Shown here: one piece after another, positions 3,150 to 35,450 of the stretch
Layout of the letters: each line of letters starts with the position of its first letter
How positions within the stretch are numbered: position 1 is the first letter of the stretch
Assembly: GCA_001795735.1 (NCBI GenBank)
Contig: MGKQ01000001.1
Location: 14,808 to 78,807, forward strand
From: Candidatus Yanofskybacteria bacterium RIFCSPLOWO2_02_FULL_41_13
GTDB lineage: Bacteria; Patescibacteriota; Minisyncoccia; 2-02-FULL-40-12; GWA2-44-9
DNA length: 64,000 nucleotides
Reading direction: 5' to 3'
The notes under the pieces: generated by a model
The model's input: only the letters and a program-made list of their open reading frames with translations
Databases searched by the model: none
Told to the model about the DNA's origin: nothing
Program-made: the position numbers and the translations under genes

Positions 3150-3191
3150 GTATTTGTCCGAGAGTGAAATGATCGGTAACAAATACTTACC
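3145..3191. repeat. 13-bp perfect inverted repeat (GGTAAGTATTTGT / ACAAATACTTACC) hairpin overlapping the stop of the HTH gene
   Basis: Seen in sequence. 21-nt loop containing a CCGA/TCGG mini-stem. No T-run. Confidence 0.5.
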
Positions 3192-3479
3192 CCCTCACTC
3201 GAAATATGTATTATTTTTATGTGTTAAAATCAGAAAAAGACAACAATCTATACTTTGGGTATACGAATAATATAAAACAGAGATTTGAGGATCATAACAA
3301 GGGCAAGGTGAGCTCAACGAAGAACAGAAGACCGTTAACCTTGCCCTATTATGAAGCATACGAGTCAGAGAAAGATGCCAGGAACAGAGAACTACAAATT
3401 AAACGTAGAGCAAAAGCTTTTATTAGCTTAAAGCGAAGGATCATATATAGCATTATCTAATTTATTTCGAGTGAGGGGG
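3190..3479. repeat. perfect 16-bp inverted repeats (CCCCCTCACTCGAAAT / ATTTCGAGTGAGGGGG) precisely bracketing the GIY-YIG ORF
   Basis: IR-L at 3190-3205 abuts the ATG at 3206. IR-R at 3464-3479 starts 4 nt after the stop. Confidence 0.6.
3206..3460 (+). CDS. GIY-YIG domain small protein (UPF0213/YhbQ-like)
   Basis: YFYVLKS...LYFGYTNNIKQRFEDHN matches the GIY-YIG motif. About 84 aa. Confidence 0.75.
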   Translation: MYYFYVLKSEKDNNLYFGYTNNIKQRFEDHNKGKVSSTKNRRPLTLPYYEAYESEKDARNRELQIKRRAKAFISLKRRIIYSII

Positions 3480-3567
3480 TGCTGATAATTACAGCTACTC
3501 GCTTTCAAGGCGAAGATTCACGGGGGGAACTTCCTGGGAATCGCCTCCGCTCGTAGGTAATTATCGC

Positions 3568-4569
3568 ATGATCATAACCCGAACACCCTTTAGAATATCT
3601 TTCTTCGGCGGAGGAACTGACTATCCAACCTGGTACAAAGAAAACGGCGGATCGGTTCTGTCTGCCGCCATAAACAAGTATTGTTACATCACGTGCCGGT
3701 ATTTACCGCCATTTTTTAAATATAAACACAGAATCGTATACAGCCAGATTGAATCAGTAGATAAAATAGACCACATAGATCATCCGTCTGTCAGGGAGAC
3801 GATACGCTTTCTTAATATTGATAAAGGGCTGGAGATACACCACGACGGAGATTTGCCGGCTATGTCCGGGCTGGGATCTAGCTCTTCTTTTACTGTCGGC
3901 CTGATAAATGCTATAAGCGCATTAAATGGCACGCTAAAAACCAAGAGAGAGGTGGCCATGAATGCAATTCATATTGAGCAAAATATGATAAAGGAGAATG
4001 TCGGTTCTCAGGATCAGACAGCAGCGGCTTTTGGCGGACTAAACCGGATAGATTTTGGAGGGGCTAAGGAAATATCGATCAAGCCTCTAGTATTGAGCCC
4101 CAATCGGCTTGAGTCTCTTCAAGACCACCTAATGCTATTCTTTACCGGCTTATCACGAGATGCTTCAAAGATCGCAAAAGAACAGGTAACAAACATTAAA
4201 AATAGGGGCACTGAATTGAAATTGATGCACAGATTAGTTGATGAAGGAGAGGCAATTTTAGCAAACAGCAGAAAGGGATTAGATGAATTTGGAAAACTTC
4301 TGAATGAGGGGTGGAAAATAAAAAAATCATTGTCGTCAAAAATAACAAATCCCTATATTGATGACGTATATAAAGCCGGAATACGAGCCGGAGCGTTAGG
4401 GGGCAAACTGCTTGGTGCGGGAGGGGGAGGATTTATTCTATTCTTTGCAAAACCAGAGACGCATGAAAAAATAAAAAGCAAATTAAAAAATTTGCTTTTT
4501 GTCCCTTTCCGGTTTGACCATCTTGGCAGCCGGATTATATATACCGGGAATGACTTTGAAAAGTTCTAG
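3568..4569 (+). CDS. GHMP-family sugar kinase (HddA/heptose-7-phosphate-kinase-like or other sugar-1-kinase)
   Basis: GHMP motif GDLPAMSGLGSSSSFTVGL and C-terminal LLGAGGGGFILFFA. Confidence 0.75.
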   Translation: MIITRTPFRISFFGGGTDYPTWYKENGGSVLSAAINKYCYITCRYLPPFFKYKHRIVYSQIESVDKIDHIDHPSVRETIRFLNIDKGLEIHHDGDLPAMSGLGSSSSFTVGLINAISALNGTLKTKREVAMNAIHIEQNMIKENVGSQDQTAAAFGGLNRIDFGGAKEISIKPLVLSPNRLESLQDHLMLFFTGLSRDASKIAKEQVTNIKNRGTELKLMHRLVDEGEAILANSRKGLDEFGKLLNEGWKIKKSLSSKITNPYIDDVYKAGIRAGALGGKLLGAGGGGFILFFAKPETHEKIKSKLKNLLFVPFRFDHLGSRIIYTGNDFEKF

Positions 4570-5354
4570 AGACTCTTGCCCTGGCCTCCATCGATCACTA
4601 TTGAAGCGCCGTTTACTAGCCGTGCCTTGTCCGAGCAGATAAATGCTACGACATTCGCCACTTCTTCGGGTGAACCAAGTCGTCCCAAAGGAAAATTATC
4701 CATAACAAATTTATTGAACTCTTCTGGATTTTCTTTTTGTTTTTTATCCAGTCCCGTGTCAGGTATCATTATCTGTCCGGGAGCAACGCTGTTAAAAGTA
4801 ATTCCATCCCTCACTAAATCATGTTTAACAGCCAAGCTTTTCATGAAGCTTATCTGAGCACTCTTTGCCATACTATACCACGGTCTTCCCCCCGCTTCAC
4901 GCCCGCATATAGATGATATAGTAACTACCCTTCCCCATTTTTCCTTCCTCATAACAGGCAAGCATCGCATTGTAAACCCAATAGCTGCCGTAACATTTTT
5001 GTCATAAACTTCCTTCCACACATTTTCGGAAGTTTTTTCAACATCATCACTGCCCCAGCTTCCTCCTCCACCAACATTATTTATTAAAATATGTAACTTA
5101 CCCCACACACCAATTATCGTGCTCGTCACACGTTCAATATCCCGCGGTTTTGTGACATCCGCCACCAGACCAAGCCCAGTAACACCCTGACCGTTTATTT
5201 CCTCAACTACCTCAGCGACCCTCTCTACATTTCTTGCACAGATAGCTACATTACAGCCCTCTGCTGCCAGAGCAATAGCTATAGCTCGGCCTATCCCGTG
5301 ACTACCGCCGGTTACTAATGCATACTTACCACTTAATCCTAAGTTCATGTCCAC
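4566..5354 (-). CDS. short-chain dehydrogenase/reductase (classical SDR)
   Basis: TGGSHGIGRAIAIALAAEG Rossmann motif. Confidence 0.8.
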   Translation of the reverse strand: MDMNLGLSGKYALVTGGSHGIGRAIAIALAAEGCNVAICARNVERVAEVVEEINGQGVTGLGLVADVTKPRDIERVTSTIIGVWGKLHILINNVGGGGSWGSDDVEKTSENVWKEVYDKNVTAAIGFTMRCLPVMRKEKWGRVVTISSICGREAGGRPWYSMAKSAQISFMKSLAVKHDLVRDGITFNSVAPGQIMIPDTGLDKKQKENPEEFNKFVMDNFPLGRLGSPEEVANVVAFICSDKARLVNGASIVIDGGQGKSL

Positions 5355-5453: not shown

Positions 5454-6398
5454 TTATCCAAGCCACTCATATATTCTTGCGACTAACGCATCTCTATCCA
5501 AACGAATCTGGGCATGGACATATTCACGCGTTCCATAAGTAAAACAATCTTCATCTTCAAGGGCAATCCTTTTTAGAGACACGGCTGATAACCCGTAATC
5601 GAATAAAAATTCGCTTATCAGCGAGCCAAGACCACCGATAGGACTATGCTCTTCTAGAGTAACAACTTTTTGACAACCGGTTAGAATTTCTGCCATTAGG
5701 CTAGAATTAAACGGCTTGATACGATACACGTCAACAACTCCGATATCAATTCCCCGAGAATTTAAAATATCTGCAACCGCTAAGGCCCTATGGACCATCA
5801 GCCCCGTTGAGATAATAATTACATCTTTTCCATTTCTGATTTTTGCTAAACCTGCATAAAAATTTTCTTCCCCGGTATAAATTGGCGGAGGATTATCCTT
5901 ATCGAATCGGATGTAAAGAGGTCCGTTAGTGTTTCGATGAGCAATCTCAGGAAAACGAGACAAGCTGACCGTATCAGATGCATTCAAGATCGTCATCCCA
6001 GAGATTGCCCGCAGAATTGATAAATCTTGAACAGCGTGATGTGTAGGTCCGGCATCACCATAAGAATACCCGGCTCCGACTCCCACCAAAGTAACAGGAA
6101 GACCCATTAAGCCTAAATCCACTTTTATTTGCTCATAACATCTCAGGGTAAGAAATGATGCGATTGCATGTACAAAAACTTTTTTACCACCCAAGGTCAA
6201 ACCGGCCGCAACACCTATTAAATTTTGTTCTGCAATCCCGCCATTGATTATCTGGCTGGGTATAGCTTGCTTAAATTTTTCGAAAGTATGAGCTTTCTGG
6301 TCGCCATGTATCAAAACGACACTGCTGTCGGCTAGAGCTAGAGTATATAGCTCCTCAAAAAAGGCATCCCGCATATCTGCGTAGTTTTTAACTTGCAT
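5454..6398 (-). CDS. transketolase, C-terminal (pyrimidine-binding) subunit of a split transketolase
   Basis: Transketolase C-terminal-section-like sequence. Start placed at the ATG with an AGGAG SD (11-nt overlap with the N-subunit gene). Confidence 0.8.
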   Translation of the reverse strand: MQVKNYADMRDAFFEELYTLALADSSVVLIHGDQKAHTFEKFKQAIPSQIINGGIAEQNLIGVAAGLTLGGKKVFVHAIASFLTLRCYEQIKVDLGLMGLPVTLVGVGAGYSYGDAGPTHHAVQDLSILRAISGMTILNASDTVSLSRFPEIAHRNTNGPLYIRFDKDNPPPIYTGEENFYAGLAKIRNGKDVIIISTGLMVHRALAVADILNSRGIDIGVVDVYRIKPFNSSLMAEILTGCQKVVTLEEHSPIGGLGSLISEFLFDYGLSAVSLKRIALEDEDCFTYGTREYVHAQIRLDRDALVARIYEWLG

Positions 6399-7221
6399 TT
6401 TCGTTCTCCTGATATGTAAGTTCCTGCCTAGCCTTAGCAGCAAATTCGCCCTTGGGTGCACCGTGATGCCAATTAGAGTTGTTCTCCATGAACGAAACCC
6501 CCTTGCCCTTTATGGTTTCGGCTATTATAGCCGTGGGCTTATCCGTTGGTTGTTTGGCTCTTTCAAAACCCGACAATATATCCTTAAAATTATGGCCGTC
6601 TACTTTTATCGTGCGCCAGCCAAATGCCTGCCATTTGTTTTCCATCAGAGCAGATCCTGAAAAATTCATGGTAAAATCGGAAGCGCCAATTTTATTATTA
6701 TCTATCACGGCAATCAGATTATTCAGTTGATGATTTTGACCAAACATGGCCGCCTCCCAGACAGAGCCCTCATTGCATTCAGCATCACCCAGAATCACTA
6801 CCGTAAGAAAATTACTTTTGTTCATTTTCGCGCTTAGGGCAAGGCCACAGGCAATACTTAATCCATGGCCCAGAGACCCTGAAGAGATTTCTATTCCCGG
6901 TATTAAATGGTCCGGGTGATCTCCAAGTATCGTTCCATTTTTACCACAATTTTCTAATTCCCCAACGTCGAAAAATCCTAAATCTCCTAAAATTGCATAA
7001 AGCCCAAGCATGGCATGGCCCTTACTAAATATCACCCTATCTCTGTTAGTATTATTTTTTAAGAGAGGAGATACGTTCAAAATACCACCATAGTAGAGGG
7101 CAACAAGGATCTCTACGCAAGAAAATGTACCACCTAGGTGGCCCCTGCCGGCACTAATGCACATTTCCAAAGCCTTCCTTCTAACCCAATTCGCCTTCCT
7201 ATCCAGTTCGTCTGTGTTCAT
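6388..7221 (-). CDS. transketolase, N-terminal (ThDP-binding) subunit of a split transketolase
   Basis: GDLGFFD...GDHPD...GSLGHGL...GDAECNEG are ThDP-binding motifs of the transketolase N-terminal section. Confidence 0.8.
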   Translation of the reverse strand: MNTDELDRKANWVRRKALEMCISAGRGHLGGTFSCVEILVALYYGGILNVSPLLKNNTNRDRVIFSKGHAMLGLYAILGDLGFFDVGELENCGKNGTILGDHPDHLIPGIEISSGSLGHGLSIACGLALSAKMNKSNFLTVVILGDAECNEGSVWEAAMFGQNHQLNNLIAVIDNNKIGASDFTMNFSGSALMENKWQAFGWRTIKVDGHNFKDILSGFERAKQPTDKPTAIIAETIKGKGVSFMENNSNWHHGAPKGEFAAKARQELTYQENENAS

Positions 7222-7362
7222 CTTTCCCTACCTATTTCTTTTTAAGGATCTTTCGTACAAAAAGCATACTATAGTTTTCAATTAAATCAAGCGGTTAGGT
7301 TGACAAGCATGATAAGATTATTTACTCTCCACTAATGCTTGGTACAAACGAGGGGCAGTAAG

Positions 7363-8481
7363 ATGACAAATAATACCAAAGCTCTTTACAAATCTAGGAC
7401 TGATTTCCAACCACAACTTGATACTTTTAAGCGTCGAACTTTACGGCAAATGGAGAATGTGCAAACACCCTATTACCCGATTTGTGTTAAGGATCTGATT
7501 AGCATAAAGGTATGCCCTTTGTGCCGTAATTCTCACATCGTTCCGATTGCCCAGGTATATTTAAAAGATAGGTTTACTTTTTTTTCTACCGGCGTATGCC
7601 AAAGTTGCGGATTTGTATTCCGAACAATATCGCCATCCTATGCCTGGTTTCAAAAACGCTGGCGACAAATAAGGACCGACTCCCTTGAACCATTTAATCC
7701 AGCAATAGAAAAAATCCGAAGGCGCCGTTACATGCAATACCTGCGTCTTATCCGAAAATATAAACCTTCCGGCAGCCTATTGGATATAGGCGCGGCAAAT
7801 GGAACCGGGTCTGCCTTACTTCACGAATACGGCTATGATGTTAACTGCATTGAACCGGAAGACAACAAAGCTCTAATCATTACAAACAAGCATGGGCTTC
7901 CCTTGGTTGCAAATGATATCGAAAAATTCTTGAACCGTACGAGTATAAAACAATACGACGTGGTTGTATTCGCTCACTGCCTAGAACACTTGGATAATCC
8001 AGTCAAGGTCATGCGTAAAATCAGACGTGCCATAAAGCCTGACGGCCTTCTGTATCTGGAAGTACCCATAATGAAAAATTTTGTCACCTGGAGCGATGCG
8101 CTGTATCTGACGCACAAAAGTAACTTCACAAAAGAGACACTTACATATCTGACTGAAACTTGCGGATTTGAAACTTTAGAAACAAGACGTTTCCGCCACA
8201 GCCGAAGCGAACCATTGGACTTCGGCATGGTGCTCCGGCCGATACAAAATACTTTCAAATCAATAAAATCAATAAAAAAAATTACTGCCAAAGACATCAT
8301 TACCATATGTAACCTGTATCGGCGCGGTCTGCCGCCGGCTTTCAGAAATTTTCCGGCTAAAATTCTGCGTTACGAAGTTAATGCAATTGAGCAATTTTAC
8401 TGCACACTCCGCCTCGATCATAAATCTCTAAAAGTACCCGCCGATCCGAATGGCGCTATTACCTTTGAACAGCACTCATAA
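7363..8481 (+). CDS. SAM-dependent methyltransferase with N-terminal Cys4 zinc-ribbon (sugar C-methyltransferase-like architecture)
   Basis: CPLCRNSH...CQSCGF zinc ribbon, then LLDIGAANGTG motif I. Start moved to the ATG preceded by GAGGGG SD (the ORF-track start is a TTG). Confidence 0.7.
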   Translation: MTNNTKALYKSRTDFQPQLDTFKRRTLRQMENVQTPYYPICVKDLISIKVCPLCRNSHIVPIAQVYLKDRFTFFSTGVCQSCGFVFRTISPSYAWFQKRWRQIRTDSLEPFNPAIEKIRRRRYMQYLRLIRKYKPSGSLLDIGAANGTGSALLHEYGYDVNCIEPEDNKALIITNKHGLPLVANDIEKFLNRTSIKQYDVVVFAHCLEHLDNPVKVMRKIRRAIKPDGLLYLEVPIMKNFVTWSDALYLTHKSNFTKETLTYLTETCGFETLETRRFRHSRSEPLDFGMVLRPIQNTFKSIKSIKKITAKDIITICNLYRRGLPPAFRNFPAKILRYEVNAIEQFYCTLRLDHKSLKVPADPNGAITFEQHS

Positions 8482-8484
8482 CAT

Positions 8485-8510
8485 ACCGCCATAATTATGG
8501 CGGTTTTTGA
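8485..8510 (+). terminator. rho-independent terminator
   Basis: ACCGCCAT / ATGGCGGT stem followed by TTTTT. Confidence 0.6.
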
Positions 8511-8568
8511 CATGCTATAAAAAATAGTTTATCTTAATGCCAAGCAAAAAACGAATTGGGAGGTTATC

Positions 8569-9528
8569 TTGCCTAAACTGCTATTGGACCTTTACAAAAA
8601 GATGTATTTGATTCGAGAAGCCGAAGCAGAAATACGCAGAGAATACAATAATGACGAAATGAAAACTCCAATGCATATGTCGTTGGGCAGTGAAGCTATT
8701 GTTGTGGGTGTATGCCATGCTCTACCTGAAAGTAATCACGTATACGGGACATACCGGAGCCACGCACTATATCTTGCTTTGACCGGCGAAACAGATAAAT
8801 TCTTTGCTGAAATGTACGGTAAGGCAACGGGCTGCGCCAAGGGTAAGGCCGGTTCGATGCACTTGTCATCACCGGAGCATGGCCTAATGGCCACATCGGC
8901 TGTTGTGGCGACAACTATCCCTTGGGCTTTGGGAGATGCTTTTCAGGCAGTTTATAGCAACATTAACCGAATTACCGCTGTTTTTTTTGGAGATGGCGCG
9001 ACCGATGAAGGCGTATTTTGGGAAACTTTAAATGCGGCCTGTCTAATGAAGCTGCCGATTCTATTTGTCTGTGAAGATAACGGACTGGCCATTCATACAT
9101 CAACTGAACAACGCCGAGGATACGATTCTTTAACGGATATAGTTAAGAAATTCAGATGCAACGTTTTGGAGGGTACCGGCAACGACGTCGTAGAAGTATA
9201 TGCTATGGCGAATAAGACAATTAATTATATTATAACAGATAAAAAACCGTCCTTCCTTTGTTTGAAATATTACAGATATCTTGAGCACGTCGGCGTCAAT
9301 GAAGATTTTAACGCCGGTTATAGGTCTAGAGAAGAGTTATTAAAATGGCTGGAGAAAGATCCGCTATACATACACCGCTTAAAGCTTACAGATCTCGGAT
9401 ACACTGACGAGGTGGAGGAGATTGAAAAACAAATCCGTGAACAGGTTCTTGCAAGCAGAATTAAAGCTCAGGAAGCGCCTTTTCCGGATAAAGATGAATT
9501 GATGAAGGGGGTTTTTTATGGAGAATAA
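8569..9528 (+). CDS. ThDP-dependent dehydrogenase E1 component, alpha subunit (PDH/acetoin-dehydrogenase E1-alpha-like)
   Basis: E1-alpha ThDP-binding region GDGATDEGVFWE..N. TTG start with GGGAGG SD. Confidence 0.8.
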   Translation: MPKLLLDLYKKMYLIREAEAEIRREYNNDEMKTPMHMSLGSEAIVVGVCHALPESNHVYGTYRSHALYLALTGETDKFFAEMYGKATGCAKGKAGSMHLSSPEHGLMATSAVVATTIPWALGDAFQAVYSNINRITAVFFGDGATDEGVFWETLNAACLMKLPILFVCEDNGLAIHTSTEQRRGYDSLTDIVKKFRCNVLEGTGNDVVEVYAMANKTINYIITDKKPSFLCLKYYRYLEHVGVNEDFNAGYRSREELLKWLEKDPLYIHRLKLTDLGYTDEVEEIEKQIREQVLASRIKAQEAPFPDKDELMKGVFYGE

Positions 9529-10567
9529 GAGGATCATTTCTTACTGCAAAGCGATCAACGAAGCGCTTTATCAGGAGATGGAGAGAGATGAGAGGATATT
9601 CGTTTACGGTTTGGACGTTGCGGATCACAAACGCACATTCGGCTCCGGTGAGGGCTTATTGGAACGTTTTGGGCCCAAGCGATATTTTTCCACCCCTCTT
9701 TCAGAAGATGCCATGATGGGTTTGGGCGGCGGCGGCGCTGTAGCCGGTTTACGCCCCATCAACGTACACATAAGAGTTGACTTTCTTTTGCTGTCCATGA
9801 ATCAGTTAGCAAACATGATTGCCCCCATACGCTACGGATCGGATGGAAAACTTTCTGTTCCATTGGTAATCCGCGCAATTATTGGGCGGGGCTGGGGCCA
9901 AGGATTCCAACATTCAAAAACTCTGCAAAGTGTTTTTGCCCACATTCCCGGATTAAAGGTAGTTATGCCAACTACGCCTTATGACGCTAAGGGATTGCTT
10001 ATATCCGCTATTCGCGACAATAATCCGGTTCTTATTCTGGAACATCGCCTACTTTACTGGCAGAAAGGCCGGGTTCCCGAAGAACCATTTACCGTTCCTC
10101 TCGGCCAAGCCAACGTTCTTAGACCGGGAACCGATATCACTATCGCCGCTACATCGTGGATGAACGTTGAAGCTTATACCGCCGCACGGATAATGGAAAA
10201 GCGCAGTGTAGATGTAGAGATAATTGACATCCGCTCAATCGCTCCGCTTGATGATAAGCTTGTAACTGAATCCGCCATTAAGACAGGTCATTTGATTGTA
10301 GCCGACTACGACTGGATTAATTGCGGCCTCTCAGCTGAAATTACCGCCAGAGTATATGAAAAATGTATGCATCAATTAAAATCACCGATTACAAGAATCG
10401 GTTTTGCGCCAACACCATGCCCAACCACGCGCCCGCTTGAAAATTTGTTCTATCCTGGCGCAGAAACGCTAGTTAGAGTTATCGAACAGAAACTTGGCCT
10501 TGAGAGAGCCGATCTATCTGAAGAAGAATTTTTTAGTTATGAGAATAAATTCCGCGGTCCGTTTTGA
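9518..10567 (+). CDS. ThDP-dependent dehydrogenase E1 component, beta subunit (transketolase-like)
   Basis: E1-beta-like sequence. SD AAGGGGG precedes the ATG. Overlaps the alpha gene. Confidence 0.8.
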   Translation: MENKRIISYCKAINEALYQEMERDERIFVYGLDVADHKRTFGSGEGLLERFGPKRYFSTPLSEDAMMGLGGGGAVAGLRPINVHIRVDFLLLSMNQLANMIAPIRYGSDGKLSVPLVIRAIIGRGWGQGFQHSKTLQSVFAHIPGLKVVMPTTPYDAKGLLISAIRDNNPVLILEHRLLYWQKGRVPEEPFTVPLGQANVLRPGTDITIAATSWMNVEAYTAARIMEKRSVDVEIIDIRSIAPLDDKLVTESAIKTGHLIVADYDWINCGLSAEITARVYEKCMHQLKSPITRIGFAPTPCPTTRPLENLFYPGAETLVRVIEQKLGLERADLSEEEFFSYENKFRGPF

Positions 10568-10674: not shown

Positions 10675-10959
10675 ATGAATCCCGAACGAGACAGCAAAAG
10701 CATATTTTATACATACGTACTAAGAAATGAGAATGGCCGTCTATATACAGGTTTTACTTATGACCTACGGAAACGCCTCAATGAACACAATGACAAAAAA
10801 TCAACATATACAAAATATCGAGGTCAATATGAGCTCATTTACTATGAAATGTGTCGAGATGAGAATGATGCTCGTCAAAGAAAAAAGTATCTTAAATCAG
10901 GCATGGGCAAACGCTACCTGAAAAACAGGTTGAGGCGTTTCCTGTCTCGTACGGGATGA
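10675..10959 (+). CDS. GIY-YIG domain small protein
   Basis: IFYTYVLRN...LYTGFTYDLRKRLNEHN. Confidence 0.75.
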   Translation: MNPERDSKSIFYTYVLRNENGRLYTGFTYDLRKRLNEHNDKKSTYTKYRGQYELIYYEMCRDENDARQRKKYLKSGMGKRYLKNRLRRFLSRTG

Positions 10960-11705
10960 AATTAATATCTTTAAATATCTGGGGTGGAAAGTTATATGAA
11001 CCGCTCATGGAATTTATCAGTGAAGCCAAAAAAGATACTGATATTTTTTGTTTTCAAGAACTCTTCTTCGGTAATAGGCCCGGATATGATGTAGGCGGAG
11101 CCAGAGCCAATATTGCCAAAGAGCTTGAAAGCGCCTTGCTGGAGTTCAATATTTATCCGTACTTTGCACCAAAAAACTCGTTCTTTATGGGAGAGATGGC
11201 TCTGTCGACAATAGGTCAAGCAATTTTCGTAAGAAAGAACTTGTCAGTTACCGATAAGGGAGGTTTTTATACTCATCATCCCGTTACAAACCATAGCGGG
11301 ATTTTTCAATACATTAAAATTAGGACTGATAAAGATGAATTTATTATTGGCAATATTCACGGCCTATGGCTGCCGACCGGAAAGCTAGATAACCCGGAGC
11401 GCATTAAACAATCCGAAATGATAATAGACCTTTATGCCACTCACAAGGGCAAGAAAATAATATGTGGCGACTTCAATCTCCGGCCTGAAACAGAAAGCAT
11501 CGCCATATTCAATAAAGATTTTAAAAACTTGATCAAAGATTTTGGGATAAACTCAACGCGCAGTTCTTTCTATAAAGATGCCGAGAGATATAAAGACTTC
11601 ATATCCGATTATGTTTTCGTTTCTAGGGATGTAAATGTAATGAATTTTAAGACGATAGATGCCTTCGTATCCGACCATCTACCGATTATGCTTGAGTTCT
11701 CGTAA
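10956..11705 (+). CDS. endonuclease/exonuclease/phosphatase (EEP) family protein
   Basis: N-terminal LNIWGG...DIFCFQE and C-terminal GDFN...SDHLPIMLEF are EEP signatures. ATGA overlap with the GIY-YIG ORF. Confidence 0.7.
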   Translation: MKLISLNIWGGKLYEPLMEFISEAKKDTDIFCFQELFFGNRPGYDVGGARANIAKELESALLEFNIYPYFAPKNSFFMGEMALSTIGQAIFVRKNLSVTDKGGFYTHHPVTNHSGIFQYIKIRTDKDEFIIGNIHGLWLPTGKLDNPERIKQSEMIIDLYATHKGKKIICGDFNLRPETESIAIFNKDFKNLIKDFGINSTRSSFYKDAERYKDFISDYVFVSRDVNVMNFKTIDAFVSDHLPIMLEFS

Positions 11706-11786: not shown

Positions 11787-12989
11787 GTGAATTATAAATA
11801 TCCTCTTGCCACAGACACCGTGACCAAAGAAGACCTCCGTGCTTTGGCTGTCTGGCTGTTGAGTGATCCTGCGCCCCGCCTAACCATGGGGCCGTTAGTA
11901 AAAGAATACGAGCAAAGATGGTGCGACTGGCTTGGCAGAAATTTTGCTATCTCTTGCAGTACGGGTTCAGATGCCAATGAGTTAATGTATTACACCCTGC
12001 TCCGCTCAGGCCGGCTAAAGAACAAGAAAATTATCGTTCCAAGTGCCGCTTGGGTTACCAGTATTTCTCCGGCAATACATTACGGTTTTGAGCCGATTAT
12101 GTGCGATGCCGATTATGACACATGGGCTCTTAACAAGAGACATCTCAGAGCCTTACTCGAAGAGCACAATCCTTCTACGGTTTTTTTAGTTCAAGTACTT
12201 GGCATCCCTCACGATATGGATGACCTGATGAAACTAAAAAAGGAATACGGATTCTTCCTTCTTGAAGATACCTGTGCCGCAATCGGTTCCTCATATCATG
12301 GCCAAAAATTGGGAACATTCGGTGACATGTCTAGCATCTCAACCTATTACGGCCACCAGACACCGACCGTTGAGGGCGGAGTAGTATTTACAGATGATAA
12401 GGATCTCAATGATCTGCTTTTGATGTTAAGAAGTCATGGCTGGGTAGCACATGTTGATCCGGAGAAAAGAACCGAAATTTTAAAGAAATACGAAATCGAA
12501 GATATCGGAACCCATTTTCACTTCATTGAGCCCGGCTTTAATTCACGATTTACTGATATGCAGGCATTCCTCGGCCTGCGCCAGCTTGACCGAATAGAGT
12601 GGAACATCGAAAAAAGATCTTCTAACCACCGGCTCTACAAACAGATACTTGGTCACAGCGGTTTGTTTATGACCCAGGTTTATGACAAGGAGTCAGTTGT
12701 ATGCAGTATCCACTTTTGCGCCCTGGCCTTAAATTATGAGGAAAGAAATATAATTATTAAAGAGCTTCAGAACAACGGCATAGAAACCAGGCCGTTTACT
12801 TCGGGTAATCAGGGCCTTCAGCCATATTGGTTCAGAGAATATGGAAAGTTCTCCGCCTCCGTAGCCAATAAGCTTTATCACTGCGGGTTCTTCCTACCCA
12901 ATCACCCCTATCTTAAAACGGAAGACATCGAGTACATCTGTTCGGTAGCGATCAAGACAGCATTGGAATACAGAGAGGAGAATGGATAA
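11787..12989 (+). CDS. DegT/DnrJ/EryC1-family PLP/PMP enzyme with His at the canonical Lys position (sugar 3-dehydratase-like, E1/ColD-type)
   Basis: Family pattern D.CAAIG...SISTYYGHQTPTVEGG with H replacing the Schiff-base K. GTG start with GAGGTG SD. Confidence 0.7.
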   Translation: MNYKYPLATDTVTKEDLRALAVWLLSDPAPRLTMGPLVKEYEQRWCDWLGRNFAISCSTGSDANELMYYTLLRSGRLKNKKIIVPSAAWVTSISPAIHYGFEPIMCDADYDTWALNKRHLRALLEEHNPSTVFLVQVLGIPHDMDDLMKLKKEYGFFLLEDTCAAIGSSYHGQKLGTFGDMSSISTYYGHQTPTVEGGVVFTDDKDLNDLLLMLRSHGWVAHVDPEKRTEILKKYEIEDIGTHFHFIEPGFNSRFTDMQAFLGLRQLDRIEWNIEKRSSNHRLYKQILGHSGLFMTQVYDKESVVCSIHFCALALNYEERNIIIKELQNNGIETRPFTSGNQGLQPYWFREYGKFSASVANKLYHCGFFLPNHPYLKTEDIEYICSVAIKTALEYREENG

Positions 12990-13927
12990 TGCCCAGAGTT
13001 CTTGTCACCGGAGGCGCCGGGTATATCGGTTCGGTTCTGGTACCAATGCTTTTGAATGCCGGCCATGAGGTCATCGTACTTGATAACTTCATGTACAATC
13101 AGACTTCTCTACTTGACTGTTGTCACAACAAAAATCTGCTGATTATCAGAGGCGATTCCAGAGATGAAAAACGGATAGAAGATACTTTTAAAAACTACTG
13201 GCCTATAAGATATGTCATTCCCCTGGCTTGCATCGTCGGAGCTCCTGCTTGCGACAAAGACCCATGGTCTGCCAGAACGACCAACCTGGATGCGGTTAGA
13301 ATGATCGCCGACCGATGGAGACCAAGAATAATATTCCCCAACACTAACAGCGGTTACGGTATCGGCCAAGAAAGAAACTATTGCACTGAAGAGTCTTCGT
13401 TAAATCCAGTTTCTCTCTATGGCAAACTAAAAGTTGAAGCAGAAGAGGTATTATTAAAAAATGGAAATTCTGTGGTTCTCCGCCTGGCAACTGTTTTTGG
13501 AATCAGTCCGCGCATGCGTCTGGATTTGCTAGTTAATGACTTCGTTTACAGAGCCGTAAATGACCGCTATGTAGTACTCTTTGAGGGTAATTTTAAAAGA
13601 AACTACATCCACGTCCGAGATGTTGCAAGAGCATTTATGCATTGCATGGAAAACTTTAAGACGATGGATGGCCAAGTCTACAATGTCGGATTAAGTGATG
13701 CTAACCTTTCAAAATTGGAACTATGCGAGGAGATAAAGAAGCAAGTACCTGGCTTTTATTTTGCCGAAGCTAAAATAGGCGAAGATCCTGATAAACGCAA
13801 CTATATCGTCAGCAACGAAAAGATTGAGAAAACCGGATTTAAACCGGAGGTTTCTCTGCAAGAAGGAATTGCTGAGTTAATCAGAGGTTATCCGGTTATA
13901 AAAAATAACCATTTCTCAAATATTTAA
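12989..13927 (+). CDS. NAD-dependent epimerase/dehydratase (extended SDR)
   Basis: VLVTGGAGYIGS. Confidence 0.8.
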   Translation: MPRVLVTGGAGYIGSVLVPMLLNAGHEVIVLDNFMYNQTSLLDCCHNKNLLIIRGDSRDEKRIEDTFKNYWPIRYVIPLACIVGAPACDKDPWSARTTNLDAVRMIADRWRPRIIFPNTNSGYGIGQERNYCTEESSLNPVSLYGKLKVEAEEVLLKNGNSVVLRLATVFGISPRMRLDLLVNDFVYRAVNDRYVVLFEGNFKRNYIHVRDVARAFMHCMENFKTMDGQVYNVGLSDANLSKLELCEEIKKQVPGFYFAEAKIGEDPDKRNYIVSNEKIEKTGFKPEVSLQEGIAELIRGYPVIKNNHFSNI

Positions 13928-13991: not shown

Positions 13992-16067
13992 TTATACCGG
14001 TTCATTGGGCCGTATTGTATAAAGATAAGCACCGTTACGAAAACACCACCAGACGACTTTTCTCAGCCATTCTTCCAAAGAATCCCAGGATTCAGTTGTG
14101 CGATCAATGCAATACTCTGCTGGGCCTTCTTCGAGTATGGCCGGTTGTCCGGTAAAAATGTTTCTATAGAATTCCCAGACCCGGTAATTTAGTTTAATGG
14201 TGAGGTCGTGATCCTGGAACGGAAGCTTAAGAAGCGCCCGGTTAAGCCGAATTGCATCGTCAAGTATTATATCATTGACCGGGGCTGATCGGACGTTGCG
14301 CATAAGCCGAAGTGCCCGTTGAGCCTCTTCGTAAAAATCGGATAGCCGACCATTAACATATAATTTTATCATGGCGTATGCATCGGCCGGCCACCAAATA
14401 TCGAGCCATTCCCCGGAGTGACTGTACTCCTCTTGGCCCTGAGTTATTTTTGTCGCTTCGCTTAATAAGAATTGTCTTATGCTTGCTAGTACCGGGAATT
14501 CTTCTTCGGGAAGAAAGATTTTATGATTGCTGACGTCACGGTAATTTCCTTCTGAGAAAAGTTCTATCAGCTCCCGATAGCTTATGCCGCCAATCTGGTT
14601 CATGACTATTAAAGGAATCTGAAACATTTTATCAAAATGCAGAAAGGCAGACATCCAAGTGAACACCCTGGTACGAATCCAATCTTCCTTAGGCATAGTT
14701 TTTGTGGCAACTACCGCTTTCTGCCATTCATCTATGCCATCGGGAGTTTCTTCTTTCTTACCGTGAACGGTAAGTATTTTAATCGATACTGTTTTCATTC
14801 CGTACTCTTCCATATATTCAGGATTAGCCGCTTCGGCATTAGGCAAGATAGTAAATATATTAAAATGAATACGATTATGCTGGCCACCGGCAATAGTATT
14901 TGAGATGCCGTCAGCAAATGAGTCATATGTCTCATTGGGCATAGCCATAATCATATCAGTCACTATCATCGTACCCTTAGCGGCCATCTCATTCTGACGT
15001 GCCTGATAGGCTTCTACCTTCATATTGTCGCGGCGAATTGCCCTGAGAGTTTCCGCATTAGTTGACTGCAGTGACATAAGACCATCGGTCTTAAGTCCCG
15101 AGCGATCTAATATCGCTAACGCTTCAAATGAGTGGTCTTTCGGATTTTTTGCGTTTTGGGTTGCTATTGCCTTTGGAAATCCGTACTGCTCACGGATTTT
15201 CGCAAATTGTTCGGCAATCTTGACGTCCCGTTCTAAGATTCCAAAATTAGCATCCCCGATAAACGTATAGCCTATCTGATGCCGGCCGATCCATTCAATA
15301 TCACCACAGACCTGCTCCAAGGGAAACTTGGCCAGCTTATCTTCCGTCGCACCGCCCCAGTCACAAAATGTACATGCATATGGACAGCCTCGATTAGTCT
15401 CGAGAAGCACAATCCACTTTTGTTCCGGAAAAGATTTAATCAAATCGTCGAAAATCCCGGATTGGTAAGGTGACGGTACTACACCGAGATCAACAATACG
15501 AGGACGTCTAGGATTATGCACAAAGGTTCCGTCTTTACGTAAGTAACTTATCGATGGAATGTCTTCCCTCTCATAATTGCCGTCGAGCAACCGCTCAAGG
15601 ATATCTAGAAATACTGCTTCGCCCTCACCGTGACAGGCAATATCAATGAAGGGATAGTCCCGATGAAATGTTTCAGTAAAACTCTTGCGTAAACGTGTCA
15701 GCTGAATAAGACCGGCTGATTTTTTTTCACGGCCGAATCTTTTTAGTCCGTCTGGCACATGAGGACCACCGAAAACAATAATAATTTCCGGTTTTTGGCG
15801 CTTAAGCTCTCGGGCAATAGCACATGATAATTCAAAATTCCAAACGTAAACACTGAAAGCAACGATTTGAGCATCTATTAATTTAGCTACTGCAGATTCA
15901 ACGGTAAGCCGCTTATAGACCATCTGCAGAAATTCAAAACTGTTAGAATCGCGGGCGTACTTCTGGGCATAGGCCTTCAAATAACCGATAGATGGGGGCA
16001 GATAGCACTGACCATCCGAAAATTCGTTGCCGATCTGAGCCAAACCTATGGTTAGCTTTTTCATCAT
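13992..16067 (-). CDS. B12-binding-domain radical SAM protein (large, 691 aa; paralog of 18968..21133)
   Basis: N-terminal cobalamin-binding-like region, CPYACTFCDWG CxxxCxxC motif, conserved C-terminal roughly 250-aa extension shared with the paralog. Confidence 0.8.
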   Translation of the reverse strand: MMKKLTIGLAQIGNEFSDGQCYLPPSIGYLKAYAQKYARDSNSFEFLQMVYKRLTVESAVAKLIDAQIVAFSVYVWNFELSCAIARELKRQKPEIIIVFGGPHVPDGLKRFGREKKSAGLIQLTRLRKSFTETFHRDYPFIDIACHGEGEAVFLDILERLLDGNYEREDIPSISYLRKDGTFVHNPRRPRIVDLGVVPSPYQSGIFDDLIKSFPEQKWIVLLETNRGCPYACTFCDWGGATEDKLAKFPLEQVCGDIEWIGRHQIGYTFIGDANFGILERDVKIAEQFAKIREQYGFPKAIATQNAKNPKDHSFEALAILDRSGLKTDGLMSLQSTNAETLRAIRRDNMKVEAYQARQNEMAAKGTMIVTDMIMAMPNETYDSFADGISNTIAGGQHNRIHFNIFTILPNAEAANPEYMEEYGMKTVSIKILTVHGKKEETPDGIDEWQKAVVATKTMPKEDWIRTRVFTWMSAFLHFDKMFQIPLIVMNQIGGISYRELIELFSEGNYRDVSNHKIFLPEEEFPVLASIRQFLLSEATKITQGQEEYSHSGEWLDIWWPADAYAMIKLYVNGRLSDFYEEAQRALRLMRNVRSAPVNDIILDDAIRLNRALLKLPFQDHDLTIKLNYRVWEFYRNIFTGQPAILEEGPAEYCIDRTTESWDSLEEWLRKVVWWCFRNGAYLYTIRPNEPV

Positions 16068-16166: not shown

Positions 16167-16700
16167 CTAGCTGTCTCTTCTTGAGAGGATAGGATTTCCG
16201 GTTGGCCAGGTGATATTGAATCGTGGATCGTTCCATTTAACGGTGAACTGATTCTTACCATCGGTATAATATTCCGATTGGTTATAGTGGAACACTGCCC
16301 AGTCGCTCAATATTAAGTGGCCGTTGGCATGCATGGGGGGAATAAGTATCTGAAGACAATTACGGGGAGTCAGGGTAAAGGCTTCCCATTTTCCAAAGGA
16401 CGGAGAAGTCTCATTGTAATTCATGACTACCAGGTATAGCTCTCCGTAGAGGCAGGAAATGAGCTTCCAGGTTTTAGGATCTCCATGCAAACCACGAAGA
16501 ACGTTTTTATGTGAAAGGGAGTAATCTTGTTCAACGAATTCAATTTTAATTCCGGCATCGAAGTATTCCTGTTTTTTATATACCTCGCCACAAACTCCAC
16601 GATAGTCTTCAAAAAAATAACGCTCTATCCGTAAAACTTCGGGTAAAGTTGTCTGCGAAACCTTAATCATATAGATACTATAGCATATAATTAAAACCAA
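16167..16700 (-). CDS. dTDP-4-dehydrorhamnose-3,5-epimerase-like cupin (RmlC family sugar 3,5-epimerase)
   Basis: FEDYRGV...VLRGLHGDP...KLISCLYGELYLVV matches the RmlC pattern. True start may be the internal MIKV (16670). Confidence 0.7.
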   Translation of the reverse strand: MVLIICYSIYMIKVSQTTLPEVLRIERYFFEDYRGVCGEVYKKQEYFDAGIKIEFVEQDYSLSHKNVLRGLHGDPKTWKLISCLYGELYLVVMNYNETSPSFGKWEAFTLTPRNCLQILIPPMHANGHLILSDWAVFHYNQSEYYTDGKNQFTVKWNDPRFNITWPTGNPILSRRDS

Positions 16701-16784
16701 ACTGTCAGTTGACTAAACATCATTCTCGGTATACTATTGATCATTGTTCATTCAAATTCAAACAAAGGTCTGGAGGCGGGTCTA

Positions 16785-17738
16785 ATGACAAAGAAAAGAG
16801 TTTTGGTTTGCGGAGCTAGCGGATTTATCGGAAGAAATATATTTGAACGGCTATCGGAACGCAAAGATATTGAACTTATAGGAACTTATCACAATAATCG
16901 TTTTAGCTCAGACCCGCGATTAGTTAAGGTTGACCTGACTGATAAACATGAAGTTAATGAATTACTAAAAGGCGTTGATATCTTAATTCAAGCCGCAGCA
17001 GTCACTTCCGGTTCAAAGCAAATAAAGGAGAGGCCCTTCATTCATATCACCGACAATGGAATTATGAATCTTCTTATGTATCAGGCATCCTTTGATCAGC
17101 GTATCGGAATGGTAATTTTCTTCAGTTGTTCAGTTATGTATCCCGGCGGCGACAAGCCGGCTAAAGAATCGGATCTTAATCTTAATGACGGCATGCATCC
17201 TACATATTTCGGGGCCGGTTGGACAAAAATCTATTTAGAAAAAATGTGTGACTTTTACTCGCGCCTGGGCCGGACTAAATTTCTTGTCATCCGACACTCA
17301 AACATATACGGTCCGTACGATAAATACGACCTTGAAAAATCTCATATGTTCGGCGCCAATGTTACTAAAGTTATGACGGCTAAAGATGGCGATGAAATTA
17401 CGGTCTGGGGAACGGGCCAGGAAAAACGAGATCTGGTATATGTGTCCGACCTGGTTGATTTTGTCGAGCTGGCTATGGCAAAGCAAGATCGGGATAGCTT
17501 TGACTTAGTTAATGTCGGCTGTGGTGAGGCCTTAAGCGTAAATGATATAATCTCAAAAATAATTACTGCTTCGGGTAAGAATCTATCTTTAGCACATAAC
17601 GTAACCGGACCGACCATTCCAGTTAGCATTACGCTTGATGCAACGAGAGCAAAAGATATATATGGCTGGCAGCCCAAAGTTTCACTTGATACCGGTATCG
17701 CCAGAACTATTGATTGGTATCGTAAAAATATTCTATAA
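16785..17738 (+). CDS. NAD-dependent epimerase/dehydratase (extended SDR; GDP-fucose-synthase/4-reductase-like)
   Basis: VLVCGASGFIGRN. Start set at the ATG preceded by GGAGG SD (the ORF-track start is 48 nt upstream). Confidence 0.75.
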   Translation: MTKKRVLVCGASGFIGRNIFERLSERKDIELIGTYHNNRFSSDPRLVKVDLTDKHEVNELLKGVDILIQAAAVTSGSKQIKERPFIHITDNGIMNLLMYQASFDQRIGMVIFFSCSVMYPGGDKPAKESDLNLNDGMHPTYFGAGWTKIYLEKMCDFYSRLGRTKFLVIRHSNIYGPYDKYDLEKSHMFGANVTKVMTAKDGDEITVWGTGQEKRDLVYVSDLVDFVELAMAKQDRDSFDLVNVGCGEALSVNDIISKIITASGKNLSLAHNVTGPTIPVSITLDATRAKDIYGWQPKVSLDTGIARTIDWYRKNIL

Positions 17739-26939: not shown

Positions 26940-27571
26940 TAAAATCAACTGCTCAGGAAAAATTTTGGTCATCGGAATTCGGCAAGGAATATATGGAAAG
27001 AAACACCCTTTCTCTGCAGGAGTTGAATAAACTTTATACAACGAACTTCGGCGTATCCCGTTCACGAATTAATAAAGATTTCCTGGGGAAATTAAAAATA
27101 GGAAACATTTTAGAGATTGGATGCAACGTCGGAAACCAATTAGCACTGCTCCAAGAAGAGGGTTTTAAGAATTTATATGGCATAGAAATATTTCCGAAGG
27201 CTGTAGAGCTGGCTAAAACCCACACCAAAAGTATCAATATAGTTCAGGGAAGCGGATTTGACCTCCCGTTTAAAGATAATAGCTTTGACCTTGTATTTAC
27301 TGCCGGGGTACTGATCCACATAAGTCCAAAAGATATAAAAAAAATCATGAAGGAAATACATCGGGTCAGTAAAAAGTACATCTGGGGATTTGAGTATTTT
27401 AGTCCAGACCACATTGCCATTCCCTATCGGGGCAATAAGGACCGGCTCTGGAAAGGTGACTTTGCTAAAATGTATACGAGCCAGTTCCCTGATCTAAAAT
27501 TAGTGAAGGAAAAAAGATATAAATACCTCCAAAACGACAACCTTGATTGTGGATTTCTATTAAAAAAATGA
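26936..27571 (+). CDS. class I SAM methyltransferase (pseudaminic-acid-biosynthesis-associated-methylase-like)
   Basis: ILEIGCNVGNQL motif I. ATGA overlap with the aminotransferase gene. Position inside the Pse-like module. Confidence 0.65.
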   Translation: MIKSTAQEKFWSSEFGKEYMERNTLSLQELNKLYTTNFGVSRSRINKDFLGKLKIGNILEIGCNVGNQLALLQEEGFKNLYGIEIFPKAVELAKTHTKSINIVQGSGFDLPFKDNSFDLVFTAGVLIHISPKDIKKIMKEIHRVSKKYIWGFEYFSPDHIAIPYRGNKDRLWKGDFAKMYTSQFPDLKLVKEKRYKYLQNDNLDCGFLLKK

Positions 27572-31915: not shown

Positions 31916-31923
31916 AATATAAT

Positions 31924-35398: not shown

Positions 35399-35450
35399 GA
35401 TGGAATGGTATATTTTAATACGAGTTCTTTAATTTTTCCAAGGAGATAAG

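Follow-up and report, generated by a model that had tools for sequence, protein, structure and literature searches.

Three types of ThDP-dependent enzyme with a predicted role in sugar branching in a surface-glycan island of Candidatus Yanofskybacteria

Exactly three superfamilies of enzymes that depend on thiamine diphosphate (ThDP) are known or proposed to build carbon branches onto keto sugars, according to a 2025 review (PMC12247030): YerE-like decarboxylases, found in lipopolysaccharide (LPS) and with more than 200 members predicted; heterodimeric E1 alpha/beta pairs of the alpha-KADH2 superfamily (short for alpha-keto acid dehydrogenase 2), known from about 120 clusters, among them those of aldgamycin, kibdelomycin, avilamycin, paulomycin and trioxacarcin; and transketolases (TKs) encoded by split genes. 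In the YerE reaction, CDP-4-keto-3,6-dideoxyglucose receives an acetyl group that comes from pyruvate; YerF reduces the branch, and the related ErwE, MMAR_2332 and MyGE add longer keto acids, with an aldolase gene alongside (PMC9306805). The alpha-KADH2 pairs form C2 branches only, from pyruvate, and one of them, KbDH, has been tested in vitro; the split-gene TKs are proposed to transfer a hydroxyacetyl group to a keto sugar in miharamycin and amipurimycin, with 13 predicted, 'all from Streptomycetes', and none characterised (PMC12247030). In paulomycin, the E1 pair Pau11/12 installs the C-4' acetyl branch, and the aldo-keto reductase (AKR) Pau7 reduces it in vitro (PMC4753412). Here we describe genes of all three types in a single stretch of 64,000 nucleotides, hereafter the window, from contig MGKQ01000001.1 of a Candidatus Yanofskybacteria (Patescibacteria) genome.

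By its open reading frames (ORFs) and their Pfam and NCBIfam matches, the window belongs to an island of cell-surface glycan genes that measures at least 64 kb, and it contains an E1 alpha/beta pair, a split TK and a YerE-like lyase that resembles acetolactate synthase (ALS). Comparing these genes and their surroundings with those of relatives, we think it likely that the enzymes C-branch keto-sugar nucleotides, or possibly lengthen their chains, in the making of a glycan for the cell surface. An earlier note, made from the DNA letters, had reported the split TK with an 11-nt overlap, the E1 pair, and the ALS-like gene next to a short-chain dehydrogenase/reductase (SDR) and a methyltransferase; all of these are present, coordinates included, and the precedents that it drew on are real (YerE and YerF, PMC9306805; AviB1/B2-type pairs and split TKs, PMC12247030 and PMC4753412). 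It had also placed the three ThDP systems in one cluster, and all do lie in the island, but the ALS-like module is 44 kb from the E1/TK module and, at that distance within a 64-kb island, the two probably serve different sugars. A literature search returned no paper joining transketolase, E1 component and heptose polysaccharide gene clusters, and none linking YerE-like enzymes or branched sugars with Patescibacteria.

The E1 pair and its neighbourhoods

The genes for E1 alpha (8569-9528, plus strand; E1_dh, 161 bits) and E1 beta (9518-10567, plus strand; Transket_pyr and Transketolase_C) overlap by 11 nt and encode a heterodimeric ThDP enzyme of the alpha-KADH2 superfamily, which we propose to be a branching enzyme for a pyruvate-derived C2 (acetyl) unit. 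Both subunits fall short of the curated models for pyruvate dehydrogenase (PDH), E1 alpha with 250 bits on TIGR03182 (PDH E1 alpha) against a cut-off of 394 and E1 beta with 280 bits on NF006667 (PDH E1 beta) against 321, and the best PDB matches of E1 alpha, the E1 alpha subunits of branched-chain keto acid dehydrogenase (BCKDH) and PDH, reach only 117 bits. The ThDP motif GDGATDEG...N is invariant among the E1 alpha sequences. In Pfam scans covering essentially every ORF of at least 100 aa, we found no lipoyl/E2, E3, ilvN or ilvC domain anywhere in the 64-kb window, which bears out the earlier note's statement that E2 and E3 partners are missing, and the 13 annotated related loci (L001-L013; such numbers are our handles for loci) likewise have no E2/E3 and no ilvN/ilvC. 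By its two low scores and the lack of E2/E3 in the window and in L001-L013, the pair is set apart from the E1 of a catabolic PDH complex.

Set beside AviB1/B2, AlmDI/DII, Pau11/12 and KbDH-alpha/beta by gene organisation and context, the pair shares with them the heterodimeric E1, the overlapping genes, the lack of E2/E3 and the company of deoxysugar genes and of an AKR or SDR. The reference pairs, however, belong to actinomycete antibiotic clusters and dTDP-type deoxysugars, whereas the clade represented in the window sits in surface-glycan loci of uncultured bacteria, often together with HddA, GmhA and HddC-type heptose genes and with Fcl-like and ColD-like (GDP-type) genes, and has a split TK in 40% of its loci. 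In a scan using one representative genome per species, the E1 alpha clade numbered at least 527 relatives, which come from about eight phyla. The best 80 of these, 50-70% identical, comprise 21 loci from Patescibacteria, 12 from Planctomycetota, 11 from Omnitrophota, 8 from Chloroflexota and 7 from Desulfobacterota, with fewer from Acidobacteriota, Proteobacteria, Nitrospinota, Elusimicrobia and one metagenome-assembled genome (MAG) of Nanoarchaeota; metagenomes are rich in further homologues at 56-79% identity. All inspected loci are of the glycan type, and the earlier note's view that such systems are uncommon outside antibiotic pathways has to be given up: the apparent rarity of these enzymes reflects what has been studied. 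The locus binned as Nanoarchaeota (L068, JAUYPG010000004.1) has ColD-like, SDR, E1 alpha, E1 beta, SDR and HddA-like genes at 54-67% identity to the bacterial ones, and points either to horizontal acquisition by DPANN archaea or to an error in binning.

The neighbourhoods were counted with tblastn, using the proteins of the window, in the 63 loci with at least 8 kb of sequence downstream. Every one of them has an E1 beta orthologue; 43 have an RmlC-like gene and 38 an HddA-like kinase (50-70% identity, within 10 kb of E1), followed by the split TK (25), a classical SDR (24), an AKR (21), a B12-binding radical SAM enzyme (11), a ColD-like gene (9) and an ALS-like gene (5), SAM standing for S-adenosylmethionine. 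The TK genes begin directly after E1 beta in 17 of the 25 loci, and the E1/TK pairing, repeated in 25 of 63 related loci, is more than chance. Directly upstream of E1 alpha, an extended SDR is found in 65 of 80 loci. The window has no such gene; its ColD-like gene and that gene's partner SDR appear to fill the same role, as they do in L016, L024, L061, L068, L079 and L090.

Gene content, family placement, active-site residues and conserved neighbourhoods are observations here, and in annotated contigs the E1 pair is always found amid sugar genes. Two arrangements recur. In L001-L003, the pair is accompanied by genes for a DegT-type enzyme, a NUDIX hydrolase, an unknown protein, a B12-binding radical SAM enzyme, an RmlC-like epimerase and extended SDRs; in L005 and L006, the order is extended SDR, E1 alpha, E1 beta, (DegT), SDRs, RmlC, SDR, GHMP kinase, SIS and NTP_transferase/HAD, the last four of which make up the GmhA/HddA/GmhB/HddC set of the GDP-heptose pathway. 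Four further loci have an unbroken row of E1 alpha, E1 beta, YerE-like, TK-N and TK-C genes, bringing all three superfamilies into one operon (L023, 9346-15120; L032, 6854-17595; L044, 10055-16924; L070, 10067-17485); the hosts are Patescibacteria, Pirellulales, Saccharibacteria and Omnitrophota, and the ALS-like protein of L044 matches JanthE best, with 302 bits versus 235 for acetohydroxyacid synthase (AHAS).

The split transketolase

On the opposite strand lies a split TK of a non-canonical clade, with its C-subunit (Pyr and C domains; Transket_pyr and Transketolase_C) at 5454-6398 and its N-subunit (PP domain; Transketolase_N, 128 bits) at 6388-7221, both on the minus strand. The ORF of the C-subunit spans 5454-6461 on that strand; its actual start is the ATG at 6398, with an AGGAGA ribosome-binding site ahead, and as the stop codon of TK-N occupies 6388-6390, the two genes overlap by 11 nt. 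The best PDB match of TK-C is 6yaj, the split TK of Carboxydothermus hydrogenoformans, and TK-N scores 207 bits against 6yak, keeping the motifs GH, SKGH, DHP, WHHG and GDAECNEG...NN. In human TK numbering, H37, H77, H110, H258, D155 and N185 are kept in nearly all of 37 aligned TK-N relatives. The canonical enzymes, including 6yaj/6yak, are the best structural-sequence match of the pair, which shares with them the division into subunits, the ThDP and metal ligands and the catalytic His of the N-subunit; the cofactor-activating Glu366 of the C-subunit is also kept, in all 83 TK-C sequences of a TK-centred metagenome scan.

The pocket of the C-subunit is different. Arg318 is kept along with Glu366, but TK-C has S345H, H416G, D424A (with an Asp at 423) and R474K. 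In TK structures, Ser345, His416 and Arg474 bind the substrate phosphate and Asp424 the 2-hydroxyl of the acceptor; the canonical split TK 6yaj retains His, Asp and Arg at positions 416, 424 and 474. Position 416 is Gly in 32 of 36 TK-C sequences from E1-linked loci, and Gly, or rarely Ala or Ser, in all 36. It is Gly in 81 of 83 sequences in the TK-centred scan, and among the 150 nearest cluster representatives, taken from an exhaustive search of 1.84 billion, there are 148 Gly, one Ser, one Ala and no His. Across the clade, Arg474 is mostly Lys and Ser345 is lost. The phosphate- and acceptor-binding residues of a canonical TK are thus changed while its cofactor and catalytic residues are in place, and the two subunits, at 255 and 184 bits, stay below the TK equivalog cut-off of 488 in NCBIfam and have no pentose-phosphate context.

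The same picture is obtained when the sampling starts from the TK, which removes the ascertainment bias of the E1-centred census. Among metagenome loci of at least 9 kb, 30 of 36 have sugar-nucleotide genes, with an extended SDR in 25, a DegT-type gene in 17 and an HddA-like kinase in 11, and pentose-phosphate genes were found in none of the TK-centred loci whose gene families were annotated. E1 alpha/beta genes adjoin each of the three nearest TK-N homologues examined (59-80% identity). Within the E1 census, the split TK co-occurs with an AKR (16 of 25 loci, versus 5 of 38 without TK; p = 7e-5, ignoring phylogeny). The split TKs of miharamycin and amipurimycin, compared by description, likewise have separate N and C genes inside a sugar-tailoring cluster beside oxidoreductases; the 13 predicted are all from Streptomycetes, whereas the clade of the window is widespread, stands in operons with E1 alpha/beta and carries the His416-to-Gly signature.

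A second split TK pair with its own classical SDR lies beside the first TK and the E1 pair in three relatives (L010 and L011, 13576-15317; L012, 6379-8084). It is far more divergent, at 32-41% identity, and has Ala at 416 and Lys at 474; the L012 copy has a C-subunit that is broken up, or frameshifted, into two ORFs.

The strongest competing explanation, which we nevertheless judge unlikely, is that the split TK is an ordinary, if divergent, TK supplying sedoheptulose-7-phosphate for GDP-heptose, leaving the E1 pair and the YerE-like enzyme as the only ones to act on sugar nucleotides. Making sedoheptulose-7-phosphate is a textbook TK reaction; all catalytic and cofactor residues are retained, an HddA-like kinase gene adjoins the TK genes in the window and is present in many related loci, and relatives have GmhA-like and HddC/GmhB-like genes. 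The clade-wide loss of the phosphate-binding residues (His416 to Gly, Ser345 lost, Arg474 mostly Lys) speaks against this reading, however, as does the position of the gene between E1 beta and the SDR, AKR and radical SAM tailoring genes rather than beside gmhA. Furthermore, the presence of TK tracks that of the AKR, some relatives have two paralogous TK pairs, each with its own SDR, and the summed subunit scores are under the equivalog cut-off.

The YerE-like module and two 3-dehydratases

The YerE-like lyase (54438-56294, plus strand), of the decarboxylase superfamily, has three TPP_enzyme domains (N, M and C) and scores 432 bits on the AHAS equivalog TIGR00118, against a cut-off of 538. Its best PDB scores are to 8rph (403 bits) and 5ahk (368 bits), true AHAS reaching at most 277 bits, which places it nearer to YerE-like lyases than to AHAS. 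We take 5ahk, which was deposited under the name acetolactate synthase II, to be PpYerE, given the review's mention of a PpYerE structure, and 8rph to be JanthE, from the CDG motif that the review (PMC12247030) describes for that enzyme. The ThDP-binding GDG...NN motif is canonical and reads 'cidGDGgfqmniq...fiLNNnsyg' in the alignment to 8rph. Along with this motif, the three-domain ThDP fold and an adjoining SDR, methyltransferase and 3-dehydratase dependent on pyridoxamine phosphate (PMP), the last predicted to form the 3,6-dideoxy-4-keto acceptor, are shared with YerE, ErwE, MMAR_2332, MyGE, JanthE and PpYerE.

The adjoining 3-dehydratase gene (53085-54305, minus strand) precedes the YerE-like gene divergently, and a DegT-type 3-dehydratase with the catalytic His adjoins the YerE-like gene in all four contexts (the window, L007, L008 and L009). 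Its closest kin is E1/DdhC, the CDP-6-deoxy-L-threo-D-glycero-4-hexulose 3-dehydrase, with 321 bits to PDB 3bcx and 384 bits on RfbH against a cut-off of 423. It has His at the His220 position and keeps Cys193, whereas Cys251, Cys253 and Cys261 of the C-X57-C-X1-C-X7-C motif are absent, leaving it with one of the four cysteines of the [2Fe-2S] site. The second PMP-dependent 3-dehydratase, that of module 1 (11787-12989, plus strand), is of the ColD type: ColD (2gms), a GDP-4-keto-6-deoxymannose 3-dehydratase, is its best match in PDB, at 165 bits, and has in common with it the fold and the catalytic His in place of Lys. The His occupies the ColD His188 position (YYGHQTPT), with no Lys, and the same is seen in 17 orthologues; in L010, L012 and L016, the ColD-like gene directly adjoins E1 beta.

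Both dehydratases, then, have His instead of the aminotransferase Lys, and all 20 of the ColD-like or E1-like dehydratases collected as partners of ThDP enzymes have the catalytic His and no Fe-S triad. We found no gene for an E3 reductase near 53085-54305 or near the related dehydratases of L007-L009. Because three of its four Fe-S cysteines are absent, 53085-54305 and its sub-group, which includes L007-L009, presumably work in the manner of ColD, without the E1/E3 electron-transfer route. The earlier note had named two 3-dehydratase candidates, and both exist; its E1-type label for 53085-54305 does not hold. With a 3-dehydratase of predicted ColD mechanism adjoining each ThDP module, the arrangement would follow the logic of yersiniose synthesis, in which a 3-deoxy-4-keto sugar is made and its ketone then attacked by an acyl anion (PMC9306805).

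On this evidence, the YerE-like lyase is predicted to add an acyl branch, probably acetyl from pyruvate, to a 3-deoxy-4-keto sugar nucleotide: no aldolase gene is found near it, which by the known scheme favours pyruvate as a C2 donor (PMC9306805). The gene is followed by an extended SDR (56294-57298, plus strand; Pfam, with weak dehydratase-type NCBIfam matches), the start of which is the last base of the YerE-like ORF and which is possibly a YerF-type branch reductase or a 4,6-dehydratase, and by a class I methyltransferase (57357-58226, plus strand; Pfam). The adjacency of the YerE-like gene with the SDR and methyltransferase was not seen in L007-L009. On the other side, at 51591-53001 (minus strand), are a protein of 316 aa, with no family match, and a NUDIX hydrolase (PF00293). 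The 3-dehydratase is accompanied by a NUDIX gene and by one for an unannotated protein (312-370 aa) whether it stands beside a YerE-like gene (the window, L007) or beside an E1 pair (L001-L003). The NUDIX partner may point to a GDP-linked substrate for this module.

The window departs from the YerE system in several ways. Its dehydratase is without the Fe-S cluster, there is no E3 (AscD), and no CDP-glucose synthase is found nearby, nor did we find any nucleotidyltransferase or clear 4,6-dehydratase near the YerE-like gene. Patescibacteria are thought to be without an outer membrane, so that the glycan would not be a classical LPS, unlike in the YerE systems.

Proposed pathway, tailoring genes and the wider island

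Module 1, at about 3.5-23.6 kb, holds a number of further genes that could act before or after the ThDP enzymes. The ColD-like gene is paired with an extended SDR (12989-13927, plus strand; Epimerase, GDP_Man_Dehyd), a candidate dehydratase, oxidase or reductase making or consuming a keto sugar; the two occur together in 7 of 9 loci (Fisher p = 2e-5, ignoring phylogeny). Just downstream of the TK pair and convergent with the kinase gene is a classical, FabG-like SDR (4566-5354, minus strand; adh_short_C2, 175 bits, reaching no NCBIfam cut-off), a candidate reductase of the branch or extension carbonyl. Its orthologues, 53-84% identical, follow TK-C in L010-L012, L050, L054, L058 and L083, and lie downstream of E1 beta where TK is absent. 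The kinase itself (3568-4569, plus strand; GHMP_kinases_N, GHMP_kinases_C) is a GHMP sugar kinase with HddA, the D-glycero-D-manno-heptose 7-phosphate kinase, as its nearest named family, and its orthologues often precede SIS (GmhA-like) and NTP_transferase/HAD genes.

Beyond the ColD pair come a B12-binding radical SAM enzyme of the KedN5-family C-methyltransferase type (13992-16067, minus strand; B12-binding, Radical_SAM; 254 bits on NF033712 against a cut-off of 700), with orthologues in 11 of 63 E1 loci; an RmlC-like sugar-nucleotide 3,5-epimerase (16167-16700, minus strand; dTDP_sugar_isom, 142 bits; 127 bits on rmlC against 156); an extended SDR resembling GDP-L-fucose synthase, a 4-reductase or epimerase (16737-17738, plus strand; GDPFucSynFcl as best NCBIfam, 134 bits), which recurs in E1 loci; and an AKR (17915-18883, plus strand; Aldo_ket_red, 195 bits). 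The last, a candidate branch ketoreductase, parallels Pau7, the AKR partner of Pau11/12 (PMC4753412). Two radical SAM enzymes (18968-21133, plus strand; 21180-22478, minus strand) and a second Fcl-like SDR (22616-23569, plus strand), all identified from Pfam and NCBIfam, are probably further tailoring enzymes of the same pathway, and L010 and L011 show the same gene order, rSAM721-AKR-SDR.

Between the TK and the E1 pair lies a gene for a methyltransferase of 372 aa (7363-8481, plus strand), with a Zn-ribbon (CPLC...CQSC) and a class I SAM-dependent core (Methyltransf_23, 63 bits, residues 118-273). The earlier note had seen in it the architecture of sugar C-methyltransferases. The ribbon and the core are there, but the protein has no match to Pfam Methyltransf_13/14 even at E = 1, and its similarity to TcaB9, TylC3 and KijD1 in PDB is near-threshold (E 3e-3 to 9e-3), which leaves the C-methyltransferase assignment weak. 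The gene is rarely kept near E1, being present in 1 of 80 loci (L014, also Yanofskybacteria).

From this gene content, we infer the acceptor, the donors, the order of steps and every substrate and product. The ColD-like, Fcl-like, NUDIX and HddA-like neighbours point to a GDP-linked 4-keto sugar as the probable acceptor; pyruvate would be the donor for the E1 pair and the YerE-like enzyme, and a ketol donor would serve the TK. In module 1, the ColD-type dehydratase and its partner SDR would form a 3-deoxy-4-keto sugar nucleotide, probably GDP-linked and possibly heptose-derived, a step for which, in most relatives, the conserved SDR upstream of E1 alpha appears to replace the ColD-type enzyme. 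The E1 heterodimer would then decarboxylate pyruvate, and the hydroxyethylidene-ThDP carbanion would add to the sugar carbonyl, giving an acetyl-branched tertiary alcohol, the branch carbonyl of which would be reduced by the classical SDR, the AKR or both. With its cofactor and donor chemistry intact and its acceptor and phosphate pocket remodelled, the split TK would pass a two-carbon ketol unit, hydroxyacetyl, to a carbonyl either of the same sugar nucleotide or of a related one, that carbonyl being a ketone (branching) or a terminal aldehyde (chain extension). Finally, the RmlC-like and Fcl-like enzymes may set the stereochemistry and the radical SAM enzymes may add C-methyl groups. Module 2, at 51.6-58.2 kb, would be of the yersiniose type, the Fe-S-free 3-dehydratase feeding the YerE-like lyase and the SDR and methyltransferase following.

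A bolder and distinctly more doubtful possibility is that the E1 pair and the split TK act in sequence on a GDP-keto-heptose or similar substrate, which would yield an undescribed doubly branched or chain-extended C9-C11 sugar by a pathway conserved in Patescibacteria, Omnitrophota, Planctomycetota, Chloroflexota and others. The core of the earlier note's prediction, one or more branched or chain-extended sugars, is supported by comparative genomics; the product is still a prediction.

Several points weigh against C-branching or chain extension of sugar nucleotides as the role of these genes. The activities of these clades are predicted, and for the reference split TKs, too, the function is a proposed one (PMC12247030). 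The alpha-His (YRYLEH) and beta-His (QHS) of the E1 pair are the same catalytic histidines as in true PDH E1; catalytic residues, tried as a mark that would split the two, failed for that reason, and the E1 sequence holds nothing that tells branching from dehydrogenase function. Other non-canonical split TKs, with different roles, may have lost His416 as well. A census centred on E1 will by its design pick up the TKs that lie near E1, and its co-occurrence statistics ignore phylogeny. As for a heptose origin, the GHMP kinase scores only 151 bits on HddA, its best NCBIfam model, against a cut-off of 600, and neither a sugar-1-phosphate nucleotidyltransferase nor GmhA (SIS) nor GmhB/HddC is encoded in the window, with only GT4 genes past its right end; the starting sugar and its nucleotide are therefore not fixed by gene content.

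The island offers another conceivable use for the enzymes: the E1 pair, the TK or both could make a non-sugar substituent, such as an acyl group of the acetoin or glycolyl type that would go onto the nonulosonic acids of the 24.8-37.3 kb genes, or could cleave C-C bonds in a retro-acyloin reaction that shortens a side chain. The PseB/PseC-like, NeuB, ATP-grasp and HisH/HisF-like genes for decorated nonulosonic acids are in place, and ThDP enzymes also cleave acyloins, as does acetoin:DCPIP (dichlorophenolindophenol) oxidoreductase. We find this quite improbable, however, as most loci of the clade have no nonulosonic-acid genes nearby, extended SDRs, RmlC-like epimerases and 3-dehydratases flank the E1 pair on both sides in relatives, and the pairing of a dehydratase with a ThDP enzyme fits the yersiniose logic. 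That ordinary PDH E1, TK and ALS genes came to lie in a glycan island by chance, which the Pfam architectures, identical to those of the housekeeping enzymes, and the UniRef names 'Acetolactate synthase' and 'DXP synthase' might suggest and which the earlier note had named as what would refute it, is hardly credible, and we reject it, since all four ThDP proteins fall below the curated cut-offs, E2/E3 and ilvN/ilvC are absent wherever we inspected (the window and 13 loci), the sugar-operon neighbourhood is conserved over about eight phyla, the ALS-like protein is nearer to YerE-like lyases than to AHAS, and the TK pocket is altered.

Outside the two ThDP modules, the island contains PseB/PseC-like genes, two NeuB genes, a CMP-sugar synthetase fusion, HisH/HisF-like, ATP-grasp and Maf-like DUF115 genes, identified from Pfam and NCBIfam, along with some nine glycosyltransferases, some ten methyltransferases and five radical SAM enzymes. 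The nonulosonic-acid set, of the pseudaminic or legionaminic type, extends over 24844-37259 and includes PseB-like, PseC-like, ATP-grasp and SPASM radical SAM genes, a NeuB and CMP-synthetase fusion (27547-29388), a HisH/HisF-like pair (30532-31915), a second NeuB (34316-35398) and a Maf-like DUF115/MptE-like protein (36366-37259). The presence of this last gene is suggestive of protein glycosylation; the organism would not be expected to be flagellated. In mid-island, at 40135-43977, stands a triad made up of an 808-aa CotH kinase-like protein, which has a beta-helix domain, and two proteins with a VTC domain and DUF4956, respectively. To the right of the window end, the island goes on with four more GT4 genes (L094). 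Genomes of Patescibacteria are typically about 1 Mb, and at least 64 kb of contiguous glycan genes is a large share of such a coding capacity.

Two small GIY-YIG ORFs, 39% identical, lie at 3206-3460 and 10675-10959, each between terminal inverted repeats. Those of the first (3189-3206 and 3463-3480) are 18 nt long, perfect and unique in the window; those of the second (10679-10701 and 10935-10957) are 23 nt long and 87% matched. The second GIY-YIG ORF and an ORF of the endonuclease/exonuclease/phosphatase family (10956-11705) separate E1 beta from the ColD-like gene, and because these two genes directly adjoin in relatives, the stretch at 10675-11705 looks like an inserted, possibly mobile, element. 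A scan of 3.4-14.1 kb for promoters and terminators gave counts no higher than in shuffled controls.

About 52.5-64 kb of the window matches MGJR01000027.1 of GCA_001794375.1, the left-hand part around the E1 pair is also on the ENA Rifle scaffold ANAN16-1_SAMN03842439 scaffold_458, and several Candidatus Yanofskybacteria MAGs from the Rifle aquifer carry proteins identical to those of the window. NCBI names the proteins 'hypothetical protein'; in UniRef, the ALS-like protein is 'Acetolactate synthase' and the TK C-subunit 'DXP synthase', the latter a mislabel.

Overall, E1-type and TK-type branching enzymes have so far been placed mainly in antibiotic clusters (PMC12247030). The window and its relatives point to another picture, in which genes of the three types, frequently combined in a single operon, are widespread in surface-glycan loci of uncultured bacteria, the ultra-small Patescibacteria among them. 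It is moderately surprising that such enzymes appear to be widespread in the envelope, that they share operons with each other and with heptose-type genes, and that the TK pocket bears so clean a signature. If our reading is confirmed, Gly at the position of TK His416 would be a simple marker for telling sugar-tailoring from metabolic TKs, the annotations 'hypothetical', 'DXP synthase' and 'acetolactate synthase' would be corrected, and the clades would offer a large and diverse pool of ketone-accepting carboligases for biocatalysis. Should the E1 pair and the split TK indeed act in turn on one sugar nucleotide, this would be the first transketolase shown to take a nucleotide sugar as acceptor, and the three ThDP sugar-branching classes would be primarily cell-envelope enzymes of uncultured bacteria, not antibiotic enzymes. 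For the organisms themselves, confirmation would mean new higher-carbon branched sugars on the surfaces where epibionts meet their hosts.

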